DNA from: Eledone cirrhosa
Taxonomy: Eukaryota
Direction: 5' to 3'
Assembly (NCBI GenBank): GCA_964016885.1
Contig: OZ024747.1
Span: 27,280,001-27,344,000, forward strand
Length of the DNA stretch: 64,000 nucleotides
A program made the position numbers and the translations under genes. The notes under the pieces are model-generated. The model had not been told where the DNA came from and ran no database searches. It saw nothing but the letters and a program-made list of their open reading frames with translations. This document shows positions 15,601-24,576 of this stretch, in pieces (within the stretch, counting starts at the first letter, position 1; the number at the start of each line of letters is the position of its first letter).

Positions 15601-15699
15601 ATATATACATTATATATATATATATATATATATAGGAACGAGTAGGACCCCGACGACTGAGCTCAAGCCGTTTCGACGGCTAATTCTGGACGCACATTT

Positions 15700-16878
15700 C
15701 TTTCGTTATATATTATGTTAACTTTAAATCTAACCATCCTACTAATATCAAGAATGCTATAGTTAGTAATATTGGAAAAAGAATATCTAACCTATCTTCT
15801 AATAAATACATCTTTGATGCTAACGCCAATTACTATAATAACGCGCTTTCTAAAGCCGGCTATCCTGATAAAATCAAATATAGTAAAGAAACAAATTCTA
15901 GAAGAACTTACAGTAGAATAATTAATCATGATCATTCCAATAACTTTAATAAAAGACCTAGATACAAAAACATAATCTGGTATAATGCTCCTTTCTCCAT
16001 CTCTATTAATAATAATATTCCTAAATTATTCTTTAGTGCCTTAAATAAATGCTTCCCTCCCTCACATATCTATAGTAAACTATTTAACAAACACACCATC
16101 AAATTTTCGTATTCTACATCCTCCAACATTTCCAACATTATCTCTAAACACAACAATAAAATACTAAATACTAAATCTCTTCCTTCCAACACTGAATATT
16201 ATAATAATAGTAATAGTACTCCCAACGTCATTGTAAACCCTAGGCTAATTTCTGCAAACCCAAATACAACGTCAAACACAACTTCGCTAAATGTTCTTAA
16301 TCCCATTCTAAATCAAGAAACTATTATTCCTATCGCAAACAACTTTTCCAATCCAATTCATTCTATAGATAACACTAGGTCACTCGTTAATAATCTCTCT
16401 AATCGCAATTGCAATTGCCCTGTTAAAAATAAATGTCCTCTCAACAACCAATGTCTTGATAAAAACTTAATTTACGAATGTAAAGTTATAACTGACACCA
16501 ATTCCTTCACCTATTTTAGCTCCACTTCCACCTCTTTTAAAGCTCGTCTTTATAACCATTATTCGTCTTTTAAATACAAACTTAAAAGAACCAACACGGC
16601 TCTCTCAGAACTCATAAGGTCCTTGAAAGACAAAAATATTAAATATAGCATCTTTTGGAAGAAGGTTTCTTCTGCGTCTCCATACTTGAACAGTTCTCTA
16701 TCCAAGATTTGCAATCTCTGTCTAAATGAAAAATTTACCATTATATCTAATTTAGATTCTATAATAAATAGACGCACTGACTTGTTTTCTATCTGCTTGC
16801 ATAAATTCCATAAAACATTCCACAAAGTATACAGCTAATATCCAAATCTTTATCAATTTAGAATCTTTTTCTCAAAGG

Positions 16879-18002: not shown

Positions 18003-18218
18003 ATATTATATATATATATATTATATATATATATATATTATATATATATATATATTATATATATATATATTATATATATATATATTATATATATATTATA
18101 TGTCCCTTTATAATAATAATAATGAAATTATTGTGTAAAGTGCTCAGGTGCACTACAACTGGTCAATATAGTACATAGAATAATACACAAATGCCAGGGA
18201 AGTACATGTTTGTATGTG

Positions 18219-21045
18219 TTAGCTGTAGTGTTGGCGGATCTCGGGAAGCATGGAGGCCTTAAAGGATGCAGTGTCTCGACAGCTAACAACTGATGCAGGT
18301 AGTTTGTTCCATGCTTCAGCAACTCTGAGCGTGAAAAAATGTTTCCGAAAGTCATGGGAACTGTGCTGTTTTCTTACTTTGTGGGCATGTCCACGTGTGT
18401 TAGACACATGGAAATCAAAAAGGCACTCAGGGTTGTTGTTGGCAACATGGTTAACAATCTTGTGGGTGTTTACCAAGTCAGTTGCCAGGCGTCGGAGCTT
18501 CAATGAATCCATGCCCAGGGAAGCAAGGCGCTCAGAGTATGGTAGATGCCTGATGGAGGGTATTCGCTTGGTTGCACGTCTCTGAACAGTTTCCAGGCGG
18601 TCAATGTCCTGAGCAAGATAGGGGTTCCAGACTGGTGATGCAAATTCTAAGTGTGGTCGCACCATAGCTGTATACAGCCTTAAATAGATATCTGGAGAGC
18701 GGCTGACAAAGGTCTTGCTGAGTGATGCTAAGACACCCTCGGCCCTCTTGACAATTTTAGAGCCGTGCCTCGTCCAACGCAAATCGCTGCTGACCGTAAT
18801 GCCCAGGTCACGTTCACAGGAAGACTTCTTGATATTAGTGCTGTGGAGGGAATATGTGGACACTGGGTTTTTACTCCCAAAATGCATGGTGGTGCACTTG
18901 TCCACAGCTAGCTTGAGTTGCCAGTCTGAGATCCACTGTTGCATTGTGTCCAGGTCAGACTGCAAGCAAGATCTATAGTGTTCAGGATCTGTCCTTTTTA
19001 TCTCAAGGTACAGCTTGATGTCGTCTGCGTACTTTAGTACTGTGGCATTCCTTAAGTTGGCATCTATGTCATTAATAAATGCCACAAACAAAAGGGTGCC
19101 AAGAACAGATCCCTGAGGTACACCAGATGACATCTCATATGGTGAGGAATGCTGTCCCAGAACCGTGACTACCTCTCTTCGACTGAGAATGAAGGACTTC
19201 AACCAGTTAAAAAGATCATCCTTCACACCCATTGCAGAGAGTTTTGCCATAAGCCTTTTGTGTGGCACAGAATTGAAGGCCTTCGCAAAGTCAAGGTAAA
19301 CAACATCCACCCATGAGCCGCCATCAGTGATCCGGGTGATGTCCTCAAGAAACTCTATAAGTTGATCACAGCAGCTGGAGTTGGGGATAAATCCAAATTG
19401 CGAGGGCCGGATAAGACTGTGAGAGCTCCAGAAGTTCCAAAGTGTTTCTCTGACACAGGATTCCATCAGTTTGGCGATGCAACTAGTAAGACTGACTGGA
19501 CGATAGTTCACAGGTGATGTGCGGTCACCCTTTTTGAACAGAGGAATTACACTGGCAGTTTTCCACTGTTCTGGAGTAGCACTGTTGTTCAGACAGAATT
19601 GGAAGAAGCGTGATAACTGGTGTAGAAGGAAGTACCCACCACGTTTAAGAAGCAGGTACGTAACACCATCAAGACCAGGAGAGGCATGGTTGCGTTTATT
19701 TTTTAGGTGACGTCGCAGCATTGCAGGTGTAAATTCCATGGTTGTAATAGAGTCCGGTGTCATAGGTGGTGGAGATGGTACACTCTGGTCTTCAATGGTG
19801 AAAATGCCTGCATAGCATTCAGCAATGAGCTCTGCGCATTCCTTTGGGTCGTCAGTAACCTGGCTTGTGTGGGGATTGCGAAGAGGACCAACTGGAGAGT
19901 GAGGCCTCTGCTTTGAGTGAACATACTTCCAGAACACCTTACTGTCAGGGCTGGTTGCTATGCGCTGCTCAAATTGAAGCACTGCCTTTTTTGTCACCTG
20001 TTTGAGGTGGTTGGACGATCTATTTCGCCTCTTCCTATTAATGTCTGATTTGTGAAGTTTGTACTCACGTTCAGCATTGCGCCGTTCTTTTCTGGCAAGA
20101 CGGACTGCTGCAGTCTCCCAAATTGCGCTTTTAGGATGTTTTTTCCGCTTATGTGGCACCGATGCTGCACATGCTGTCCATATTGAGCTCAGGATGTTCT
20201 GGAGTACAGTGTTGACATCTCCAGAGTCATAGAACTCAAGCCAGTTTGGCCATTGCAACTCGGTGCAGTAACAGTTCCAGTCTGCTTTATTCCAGTCAAA
20301 GTGAGCAGTTTGGAGATGGTTGTGGTTCTTGTTACTGCCCATGAGGGATAGATTGGCAATGATCATAGCATGATCAGAGTCACCTAAAGGTTCCTCAGCA
20401 GAAACACTAATGACCGTTTCAGGAGTAGTGGTGAAGAGTAGGTCCAAAGTGTTGTCACCTCTCGTTGGGGAGGTGACCACCTGGGACCAACTCGAGTCCA
20501 GCACCAGCTCAAGGAAGTCATTTGCACTTGGCGGCCAACGAAAGGTCTCCCAGTCAATCTCAGGGTGATTGAAGTCACCTGCAATGAAAACATAAGTGGC
20601 TGTCTTCCTGGCAGCAGCTCTGAGGATATCACAAAGTTGAGTGTCCTGATGGTAATTTGGGGGACGGTAAACGACTCCAAGTAGCAGTGTTGACATGGTC
20701 ATACGTATATCGCAGAAAAAACTTCCTGCTGTGATTGGTTCAAATCAGCACAAGGAATTGCCGACAGATTTGACCGAACGTAGACCATTACACCACCACC
20801 ACGACGATTAATACGGTCTTTACGAAACAGGTTGTAGCCAGTCATGCTGAAAACCCCATCACAGAGTAAGGGATGTGCCCAAGTTTCCGTGACTGTAATG
20901 AAGTCCGGGTTGATACTTTTGACGTAGGAGTCAAAAAGATGAATCTTATTGCATAGACTACGTGCATTCAAGGACAACAGTTTGTACTTTGATTCCAGTC
21001 TATGATTATGTGCAGGGGATGGCAGGTTGTTCTGATTTAGTTTCC
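18219..21045 (-). CDS. CR1 ORF2 (APE endonuclease plus reverse transcriptase), one frameshift in a homopolymer near 20718
   Basis: ORFs 20699-20977 and 18219-20702 join across the T6 run; the frame stays open upstream to the ORF1 stop with no ATG. Confidence 0.85.
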
Positions 21046-22201
21046 CAGAGTTTTTTCAGTTTCTTTATTGTCAGTTGTTGTGGGTACACTGTTTTCAGAC
21101 CAGCTGGTGTCTCTTTTCCATGATTCGCCAGCCTTAACAAACTTCCATATCTGCCCATCATCTCGTAGGCTGAAGCTTTCATGTTCTGCCGAGCTGCGGT
21201 TTAGGGAAGCTGCAGCACGCAACTTTGGGCGGACATCAGGTGGAAGACCAGGACGTGTTCGGAAAGCAATCCGACTTTCACGCCTAGCTTTATCAGAGGC
21301 TACAAGGTATGAACGTGCCTCAGCCGAGTTTGAAAACGACAGTCTAATTAACCTGGGTTTCGGGCCTGGTCGGCCAAGGCGTAGAGCACCCTTTGCGGGA
21401 GCACAGCCCAGGTCTTTGGATGAACTGGCAGCAAATGCCTGAAGATCAACTATGTCTTCCGGCACACCAATGGCAATCACTTCGTGGTTTGCAGATTCAG
21501 TGGCATTCTCAATGCGTCTAGGTTCAACATGAGGTACGCGGAGATTTTTTAACAAGGCACTCCGGTAAGATCCCTCATTGTGGGGTTCTACACGAACGCT
21601 TGATTTTATTTCCGCTATTTCTTGACTTAAAGCGGAAATCATTTGCCGTATTTCCTCAAACTCCGTATTGACGGTCGGTTTTTGTTGTTGTTCTTCTCCT
21701 TCAACAGGCATGGTAGAAGACACAGTCGTCGGTTGTTGTTGTTGAAAAGTAACGGGTGAGGAAGACATGGGTTGCTGTTGTTGATGAAGTCCTTCAACGG
21801 GGGTAGTAGCAGAAGCTACGGTCGTTGGTTTTTGCTGTTGTTCAGGAACAATGGTAGAGGAAGACACGATCCTCGGTTTTTGTTGTTGTTGTTCAGGAAC
21901 AATGGTAGAAGACACGATCTTCGGTCTTTGTTGTTGTTCCGCAGCAATGGGAGAAGCAGGCATACAGTCCAGGCACTGAAAGGACCAGTTTGTTAGCTGG
22001 ACCATCTCCCAGAGTCTATCCATCGTAGCAATGTGATGTTTCTTATTTTGGCCTGGGATCTTCCGGAAGCCTGTGGCGCATTGAAGGCAGACAGAGATGT
22101 GACAGGTTCCACATTCGACCCAACGATTACGGAACGAGTTTTCGGGTTCCGTACAGATATGGCAGGTGTGATCTTCCGGGCAATGTTCTATTTTTGGACA
22201 T
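21037..22201 (-). CDS. CR1 ORF1 (N-terminal PHD-like Zn finger, Q-rich repeats, coiled coil)
   Basis: Frame extends upstream of the listed ORF: CHIC...WVECGTC....CLQC...WSFQCLDC. The ATG at 22201 is out of frame by one base in an A5 run. Confidence 0.75.
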
Positions 22202-22290
22202 CAACCAGTTTTGTCGCAAATTTCATCGATGGATATCACCATGGCAATTTTGTTATAATATATATATATATATTATATATATATATATAT

Positions 22291-22343: not shown

Positions 22344-24576
22344 CATCATCATCATCATCATCAACGTTTAACGTCCGTGTTCCACGCTTGCATGGGTTTG
22401 GACGGGGGTAGTCCCACTTGAGGCAAGAGTGATTGTCTTGCTCGCATAGGACTGTCTGGCAGGTTTTCTACAGTTGGATGCCCTTCCTAACACCAACCAC
22501 ATTTACAGTGTGGGTCTGGGAGGTTTTTACCGTGTTGCCTACACGGCCACATTACAGCGTGGACTGTGTGTTTTTTTTGTCGTGACACCTACACGATCTC
22601 ATTTGTTTCGGCCTCGATGGCGCGGCACCAACATAACTTTACATAGAACGGGGTGGTGTGGATCGGGTGGGGGTGGGGGTGGTGGGACGGGGTGTATTTT
22701 GTTAGAGATGCCTACTGGCTGGAGTAGGTTTTACTATATATTTAGGTAAGGCGGGTCTTCTCTGTTACTGAGTACCGCCAAAGGTCTCGGTCCAGTGACA
22801 TTGTCTTGGAGAGGTGTAAGTGTGTGATGTCGGAGTTTATCAGCTCGTCCCAGGTTTTTCTAGGTCTGCCTATTCCGTGACTACCGTCTATCTTTATTGC
22901 CCTGCACTTTGTTATACAGCTATCGACTTTCATGCGCATCACGTGTCCATACCAACGTAGCCTTCTCTCGAGTAAACAACATCTGATCCCTCTTATCTCT
23001 AATTTTTTCCTTAGTTCGTTTATGCTTTGCCGTTCACGTATATTACTGTTACACATCCAGCGGAGCATGCAAGCTTCGTTCCTCTCTAGTCTGCGTATAT
23101 CCTCTGCACACAATGCCCAGGTCTCACTGCCATGCAGCATTGCTGTTCGTATGCAGGCATCGTACAACCTGCCTTTCATTTTTAGTGAGAACCCTTTAGC
23201 AGCTAATAGTGGTATAAGCTCTCTGAACTTTTTCCAACCAGTTCTGACTCTAGCTACAGTACTTTCAGAGCACCCTCCCCCACTGCTGATTTTATCGCCC
23301 AGGTAACGGAAGCTGTCCACTATTTCTATAGAACCCTCTGCGCAATTGAAAGAGCTAGTAGTTTGTGGGCACTTGCTGCTACTTATTGCACCAGAGCACC
23401 GGCCACATGTAAAATCTATGTTCTTAGTTAGCTTACCTGTGATTCCACTACATCTTTTATGCACCCATACTTTGCATTTAGGACATAAAATGGAGTTTCT
23501 ACCTACGCCTTTCCTACACACCGAGCACGACCATTTCCCAGAAGGGACCGCCGCCTTGTTTTCTTTCCTACAAACTAGTACTTTGGTCTTAGCCAGGTTA
23601 ATTTTAAGTCCTTTTGACTCTAGGCCGTGCTTCCATGTTTGGAATTTCTTCTCTAGCTCGGCCATTGATTCCGCTATGAGTGTCAGGTCGTCTGCGTATA
23701 GGAGTTCCCATGGGCAGCCTGTCTTGAACTCCTCTGTTATAGCCTGAAGGGCAATAATAAATAGTAGTGGACTGAGAACAGAGCCCTGATGGACGCCAAC
23801 TTTTACGCTAAACTCTTCACTATATTCGTTGTTAATTCTAACCTTGCTGACTGTTTCTTTATACATGGCTTGTATAGCCCTCACAAGCCATTCGTCAACG
23901 CCTAGTTTTCTAAGAGCCCACCAGATAATGGAGCGGGGGACTCTGTCGAAGGCTTTCTCCAAGTCGACAAAAGCTAAGTAGAGGGGTTTACCTTTAGCTA
24001 GGTACTTCTCCTGTAGTTGTCGTACTATGAAAAGAGCGTCTGTGGTACTTTTGCCTGACACAAACCCGAACTGCATTTCATCTAGGTCAATTCTCTCTCT
24101 GATTAGTTGCGCTATTACTCTTTCCGTGACCTTCATGACCTGGTCGATTAATTTAATGCCTCTATAGTTACTCCTATCTAGGGCGTCTCCTTTACCCTTA
24201 TAACAGTTAACGATGATGCTGCTATGCCAGTCCTTCGGAACAACCCCATTCTGTACGACTTGGTTAACTATGCGGGTGACCATGGTGTGTCCCACCGTGC
24301 CAGATGCCTTCAGCATCTCAGCAACTATTTCCGAAGGCCCAGCCGCCCTACCAGTCTTCATATCCTTGATTGCCTTACTTATTATACTCCCCTCGACTAA
24401 CACTGCTGGTCCCTCTATTGGGTCGATATGGGGGAGACTGCCTTTCTCCCAATTATTCTCCTCATTTAGAAGCCTTTCATAGTGACACTTCCAAGCTACC
24501 TTCTTATCAGCGTCGGTGATGGCAAGTGTGCCATCGTCGTTTAGTACACACTTCTCCCCGACAATATCACGGTTTT
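22342..24576 (-). mobile_element. RTE-clade LINE, 5'-truncated copy 2 with uninterrupted RT frame
   Basis: ORF 22742-24403 (open up to the truncation point), 3' UTR, (TGA)n tail at 22342-22362. Confidence 0.95.

Follow-up and report, generated by a model that had tools for sequence, protein, structure and literature searches.

How bicistronic long interspersed nuclear elements (LINEs) translate their second open reading frame (ORF2) has been called unclear (PMC3708506, Introduction; PMC numbers here refer to excerpts of the papers named). Of the systems described, SART1 requires a downstream RNA structure and mammalian L1 restarts translation unconventionally (PMC5972666, PMC3708506). A −1 frameshift among LINEs was found stated in the excerpted open-licence literature only for TRE5-A and TRE3-A from Dictyostelium, which have two ORFs with apurinic/apyrimidinic endonuclease (APE) and reverse transcriptase (RT) in ORF2 and are said to need it (PMC5911963). 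Searches of this literature found no paper that deals with frameshifting of CR1 elements, and the main text of a 2026 survey of the CR1 group (PMC13343379) contains neither frameshift, slippery, overlap and readthrough nor start codon. Here, a CR1-type LINE copy was analyzed in a 64,000-nucleotide (nt) window, i.e. the whole stretch from 27,280,001 to 27,344,000 of contig OZ024747.1 of Eledone cirrhosa (GCA_964016885.1). Comparison with its relatives indicates that programmed −1 frameshifting at the end of ORF1 probably yields an ORF1-ORF2 fusion.

The ORF1 3′ end reads CTG GGA AAC TAA on the minus strand, and both the G_GGA_AAC heptamer and the −1 register of ORF2 were found as described in the first-pass annotation of the window. 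From 21055 into endonuclease motif I (Asn codon 20968-20966), the −1 frame contains neither a stop nor an ATG, the two frames overlap by 16 nt, and no AUG occurs in any frame before +72 after the heptamer. The first ATG of the −1 frame is codon 68 counted from the heptamer. Because motif I and motif II (Glu codon 20887-20885) both lie 5′ of it, a protein started there would lack catalytic parts; APE enzymes need their N-terminal motifs for catalysis. A five-sequence ORF2 endonuclease profile aligned with the N-terminus of the L1 endonuclease from L1 residue 8 onward; the E-values were weak, about 0.002.

The window copy is dead, with a 5′ truncation, a premature TGA in ORF1, and a one-base loss in ORF2 (the T missing near 20715 is present as an extra base in contigs of all four sequencing runs compared), whereas its family is young and intact. 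The junction region gave 1,336 candidates in the 3.0 Gb genome, and the 40 that were scored were all nearly 100% identical; a 26-nt junction sequence had 313 exact genomic matches versus 0 for the reversed control. The first Met was the same codon in 29 of 30 loci found with the exact key, with the frame open to the locus end in 20 of these 29, and the remaining locus differed by one base upstream. Twelve copies were fetched on the criterion of open frames; ORF1 comprised 409 amino acids, and ORF2 comprised 942 codons from the heptamer in 11 of them. After removal of duplicates (148 loci to 96 distinct copies), heptamer and stop were intact in 90 of 96 copies, with a single substitution in each of the other six, and an in-frame AUG within the first 28 codons was present in none. 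The arrangement of heptamer, stop, and −1 frame is a state of the family and extends beyond the window copy. A consensus with an in-frame AUG or a different register, named in the first-pass annotation as a refutation, was not found: such an AUG is absent from the family, and ORF2 stays in the −1 register.

In a sister subfamily (~81% identity), site, stop, and register are kept, and 32 of 33 bases from −6 to +26 match compared with 9 to 12 of 15 in neighboring blocks; the block was read from a printed alignment and its limits were chosen after inspection. The metagenome locus L123 (60% endonuclease identity), the sister group on a quick tree, keeps nine bases covering the heptamer and the start of the stop as the only contiguous block, with both flanks diverged. 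ORF1 of L123 is interrupted upstream, and an ATG precedes the Asn of motif I by two codons; judging from the sequence, a start at this ATG would remove the first strand of the endonuclease domain. Another ORF1 homologue (54%; protein sequence only) also ends in Gly-Asn, and in two distant families, L187 and L198, heptamer and stop are identical. At fixed ORF1 protein and codon usage, a single heptamer arises by chance with a frequency of 13%. Its conservation across diverged families is not chance. The test proposed in the first-pass annotation, retention of heptamer plus stop in the −1 register, gave a positive outcome in the Eledone copies, the sister subfamily included; heptamer and stop are also kept in L123.

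More distant relatives were surveyed in metagenomes (best 80 of 257 relatives) and genomes (21 contigs); 12 of them were dropped because they lacked the endonuclease N-terminus. Inclusion of the two own subfamilies brought the number of junctions to 91, of which 28 with short or broken frames (L123 and L187 among them) were dropped, and the remaining 63 were grouped into 50 families at 80% identity. ORF2 was at −1 in 28 families (own family included), at +1 in 16, and in frame in 6. A strict site was defined as X_XXY_YYZ in the ORF1 register within the overlap; a relaxed site also admitted GGA, UCC, and GUU as the first triplet, exceptions listed in PMC5009743 that were added after the sequences had been seen. 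In the −1 families, a strict site was present in 18 of 28 and a relaxed one in 25 of 28, compared with 3 and 2 (strict) and 5 and 2 (relaxed) in the other two registers, and 2.8 and 3.7, respectively, predicted from upstream ORF1 windows. The +1 families carried a strict site in 1 of 16 and a relaxed one in 3 of 16 cases, and clustering at 60% gave 16/24 and 21/24 for the −1 class. With the protein fixed, the codon usage of each ORF1 applied, and the −1 frame held open (only 74 valid samples for one family), 6.7 strict and 9.9 relaxed sites were expected, and 0 of 200,000 simulations, in which families were treated as independent, reached the observed counts.

From the site to the ORF1 stop, the −1 frame of the 25 site families is open over a median of 22 codons; these stretches amount to 775 codons, in which 76 stops would be expected at the background rate of 0.098. 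Upstream of the site, the −1 frame closes after a median of 3 codons, at the background stop rate. Sites of the A type end in AAC in 22 of 23 cases and never in AAT, compared with 129 AAC versus 166 AAT among upstream Asn codons. The homologous site codon encodes Glu in L124 and L134, Gly in L131 and L153, and Leu in L144 and L147, and in all six it ends in A and is followed by AAC. Neither an AUG nor a CUG lies in frame between site and endonuclease in 10 of 28 rows. Two further observations concern the neighborhood of the site: L132 and L208 have a noncanonical heptamer G_GGG_GAA at the homologous position, and a fixed GTG GTA GG with no synonymous variation, possibly a sequence stimulator or a dual-frame constraint, follows a few codons past the site in L124-L126, L130, L131, L134, L137, L144, L147, L153, and L184.

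Fusion by programmed −1 frameshifting, as proposed in the initial reading, is thus supported by comparative evidence, namely conservation in relatives and the survey excess. A minority of ribosomes would shift back by one base on the G_GGA_AAC before the ORF1 stop, presumably by tandem slippage of tRNA-Gly and tRNA-Asn, to give an ORF1-ORF2 fusion of ~1,350 residues, with ORF2 having no start codon of its own. Most ribosomes would stop at the next codon, resulting in much ORF1p and little fusion as for Gag versus Gag-Pol, and the ORF1 part of the fusion may deliver the enzyme to its own RNA. PEG10-type domesticated elements use −1 frameshifting. G_GGA_AAC ranks among the most shift-prone eukaryotic heptamers (PMC5009743). 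The shift might be stimulated by slow termination at the stop codon next to the heptamer, by the conserved stretch from +1 to +26, or by ribosomes queuing behind a hairpin at +35; the latter distance exceeds the classical spacer by what might be roughly the length of one ribosome.

Local folding of four downstream windows (z = +1.5, +1.4, −0.5, and −0.6) revealed no structure just behind the heptamer, where the first-pass annotation had seen no convincing pseudoknot. The hairpin predicted from +35 to +87 is conserved between the subfamilies, with one compensated pair (G-C versus A-U). It reached up to −28.3 kcal/mol (z = −8.2, second lowest of 205 windows along the element) in the sister subfamily. 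In the subfamily of the window copy, three older copies gave −18.8 kcal/mol (z about −4) and four others z values of −2.0 to −2.6. The hairpin is too far downstream for a classical stimulator. A pseudoknot of +5 to +30 with this hairpin was rejected after a duplex search, the only search made for it: the duplexes obtained were weak (−6.5 to −11.9 kcal/mol) and compete with the hairpin. The adjacent stop, suggested earlier as a possible source of the pause, cannot be a general pause signal because most related families have the site 20 to 60 codons before the ORF1 stop; in the own family it remains a candidate stimulus. Of the classical features given in PMC3542737, the zero-frame heptamer and the open −1 downstream ORF are present, and we do not file the junction as a classical signal because there is no structure 5 to 9 nt downstream. 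Among single relatives, L187 has a perfect 10-bp complement between +8 past the heptamer and its 3′ end, 106 nt beyond the ORF2 stop (one family); L128 and L133 have strong hairpins of differing sequence (z = −2.7 and −3.0) about 10 nt past T_TTT_TTA, a near-classical distance; and ORF1 of the sister subfamily (copy L076) has two more very stable hairpins, located ~570 and 270 nt 5′ of the heptamer (z = −8.4 and −7.3).

Several findings weigh against frameshifting. No stimulatory structure was predicted by local folding 5 to 9 nt past the heptamer in the own family, folds with z ≤ −2 at this distance occurred in only 4 of 28 rows (L123, L128, L133, and L154), and no pairing of downstream bases with the 3′ end of the element was found in either subfamily. 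The surveyed families are related, so that the counts overstate independence; on the quick tree, about 13 of 16 −1 lineages have the site. Three of the 28 −1 families are without a site under the definition used, and an in-frame AUG lies between site and endonuclease in 10 of 28 rows. The own overlap is short (16 nt), so that the open-frame argument rests on the relatives. Translation of mammalian L1 ORF2 has been described as AUG-independent (PMC5009743). Finally, the hairpin is weakened in the youngest copies (−13.0 kcal/mol, z = −1.7), and its position at +35 behind a conserved in-frame CUG is a layout that suits reinitiation. In such a mechanism, which we consider unlikely, ribosomes would terminate at the TAA and the small subunit, aided by the hairpin, would restart at the CUG 14 nt on, or at no defined codon as proposed for L1, to give a separate ORF2p. 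Its best argument is the combination of the CUG (with A at −3, in both subfamilies) and the conserved hairpin 18 nt past it; the missing AUG up to +72 and the SART1 and L1 precedents cited above point the same way. It leaves the conservation of the heptamer and the outcome of the survey unexplained, L123 keeps heptamer and stop with no in-frame CUG and with a hairpin at about +5, and there is no stop-start overlap at the junction.

That the heptamer is incidental, with Gly-Asn (or Lys-Asn, Glu-Asn) kept for the protein and ORF2 translated from a spliced or internally started RNA, is very improbable. The chance frequency of a lone site and the location of the A_AAA_AAC class in a conserved ORF1 peptide would fit this explanation, but the site excess persists under the fixed-protein null, AAC is used in 22 of 23 cases, and the first site residue varies. 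Moreover, no pyrimidine tract precedes an AG after the stop, and an RNA that skips the junction would need an AUG, none of which is in frame before codon 68. Contigs from four runs (one study, kind of run unrecorded) had no ORF1-ORF2 joint at the junction among the joints listed and are uninformative on splicing. ORF2 protein could also be supplied by rare genomic copies fused by an indel, with the other copies mobilized in trans. In L088, L090, and L091, an indel in an upstream A run produces natural in-frame ORF1-ORF2 fusions, two of them with a fully open frame of 1,381 codons and the third breaking later, and a frame-fusing indel within the 40 nt upstream was found in 7 of 84 subfamily A copies. 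Yet 71 of the 84 have no net indel there and 4 have nonfusing indels, and fused masters would give fused progeny. Apart from the indel, no private variants are common to the three fused copies that were compared, and these are for this reason regarded as independent slips in the A run; a propagating fused lineage was rejected on the same ground and is largely refuted. We give this source of ORF2 protein hardly any chance; the fused copies are useful as natural controls.

Junctions of other recoding types were found among the +1 and in-frame families; the codon null was applied to the −1 class alone, and the following counts are raw. An in-register TTT followed by C lay in the overlap of 9 of 16 +1 families, compared with 4 and 1 in the other registers; TTT-C was also found in 8 of 28 −1 families, whose overlaps are longer. 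In the +1 families it mostly encodes the Phe of a peptide at the ORF1 end (LNPxAxxF) that we liken to the PAM2 motif. This tail may serve to bind poly(A)-binding protein (PABP), and its TTT-C is a candidate +1 slip site; no mention of PAM2 in these elements was found among the best 10 of 17 literature matches listed. One +1 family reads TCC TTT CGG and then a stop, which resembles the influenza +1 site that the title of PMC3498833 gives. The six in-frame families (L139, L162, L203, L207, L209, and L211) all have a single TGA followed by C (five CT, one CA) and no Met before the endonuclease, resulting in readthrough-like junctions; UGA-C is a leaky stop context (PMC3542737). The chances are about even that CR1-group LINEs as a class make an ORF1-ORF2 fusion by recoding and switch among −1 slip, UUU_C +1 slip, and UGA-C readthrough, and, as part of the same proposal and with the same even odds, that an undescribed stimulus acts in them, most having no classical downstream structure. 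The LINE-bearing contigs L203-L223 were located in prokaryotic genome bins, evidently as eukaryotic contamination.

Dispersed, 5′-truncated copies, a 3′ stem-loop followed by a short tandem repeat, and a PHD-type ORF1 are CR1-group features. Copies of the Eledone family are dispersed and 5′-truncated, with a 3′ stem-loop and then a short tandem repeat, the (ATT)n tail being common to full-length copies. ORF1 consists of a Cys-rich PHD-like N-terminus, a Gln/Pro-rich linker, and a conserved C-terminal domain, and had no significant Pfam match. As a lead only, PHD families occurred in 12 to 32% of members of its look-alikes in the Atlas (0.90-0.91). ORF1 homologues were 40 to 54% identical, the nearest named ones being hypothetical proteins of Octopus vulgaris (40-50%), which by itself would make a cephalopod the probable host. 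ORF2 carries PF03372, PF14529, and PF00078 above cut-off (APE endonuclease, then RT), and L1 ORF2p is its best solved relative. A quick endonuclease tree built with no named references placed the family in a 39-row group (Shimodaira–Hasegawa-like approximate likelihood ratio test, SH-aLRT, 89) that includes three bird proteins, which we take to be CR1-derived. Three outside protein queries against the own genome returned only the two known subfamilies among the loci examined, and no relatives of the element were found in viral contigs. A PHD-type ORF1 is also mentioned in PMC3708506. The features of the element are compiled in Table 1.

Table 1. Features of the CR1-type LINE copy in the window and +1-register relatives (UTR, untranslated region)
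Feature	Position	Strand	Remarks
ORF1	21037..22256	−	truncated at 5′ end, start lost; premature TGA 22203-22201
Slippery heptamer G_GGA_AAC	21040..21046	−	ORF1 register; codes for final two residues Gly-Asn
ORF1 stop TAA	21037..21039	−	abuts heptamer; TAG in relative L123
ORF2, 5′ part	20699..21055	−	−1 frame; comprises linker and endonuclease motifs I and II; first AUG at 20845
In-frame CUG, A at −3	21023..21025	−	both subfamilies; absent in L123; candidate start if reinitiation occurs
Second CUG	20998-20996	−	within hairpin
Predicted stem-loop	20952..21004	−	begins 35 nt past heptamer; common to both subfamilies; one compensated pair
First in-frame ATG of ORF2	20843..20845	−	codon 68; too late for whole endonuclease
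T run with one-base deletion	20711..20722	−	deletion private to window copy; splits ORF2
ORF2, 3′ part	18219..20744	−	rest of endonuclease, RT, C-terminal region
3′ UTR	18111..18218	−	small stem-loop 18153-18140 plus (ATT)n tail
+1-register relatives L141, L156, L157, L158, L165, L169, L179, L180, L200			mostly PAM2-like ORF1 ends

Two other frames were noticed in the window. Just upstream of the element (22742-24574, minus strand), another LINE, probably RTE-type judging from its sequence, contributes an open RT frame of 610 codons in which the RT domain is followed by a PHD-like finger. A 384-codon open frame on the plus strand (15684-16838) had no Pfam match; its C-terminal part resembles what we take to be the nuclease end of a Penelope-type element.

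If frameshifting holds true, a very widespread group of LINEs would have an ORF1-ORF2 fusion as its active enzyme. This would alter the picture of stoichiometry, cis-preference, and ribonucleoprotein assembly, and affect annotation and the rebuilding of elements for assays. The LINE cases studied (L1 and SART1) point to reinitiation. A −1 shift with no near structure would be of interest for the mechanism of recoding. Being young and intact, and with naturally fused in-frame copies at hand, the family lends itself to a direct test. Frameshifting was reportedly suggested, without tests, in early accounts of individual LINEs whose ORFs overlap, and the idea may already be in print for single elements. 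The frameshifting review PMC5009743 mentions HeT-A and TART, and for L1 it favors initiation by an unknown mode.

Compared with known systems, the element resembles SART1 and mammalian L1 in its bicistronic LINE RNA, and SART1 also in a downstream structure (here the predicted hairpin). SART1 has an overlapping UAAUG and L1 a 63-nt spacer plus AUG, whereas the element has overlapping frames and a slippery site, no adjacent or overlapping stop-AUG, and no spacer with an ORF2 AUG ahead of the endonuclease. TRE5-A and TRE3-A, compared here through a secondary description, share the ORF layout and the proposed −1 shift but belong to a different lineage and host and target tRNA genes. Retroviral and RNA-virus Gag-Pol junctions likewise have X_XXY_YYZ in the zero frame, the enzyme ORF at −1, and an excess of structural protein (PMC3542737, PMC5009743); unlike them, the element is non-LTR (lacking long terminal repeats), with no structure at 5 to 9 nt and no protease to cut the fusion. 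By this analogy the junction would work like Gag-Pol recoding, yet it misses the classical definition. Recoding at the ORF2 N-terminus is also described for CR1-group LINEs with 2A-like peptides (CR1, L2, Crack, and Rex1 clades; PMC3708506); 2A splits one frame into two products, whereas the element would join two frames.

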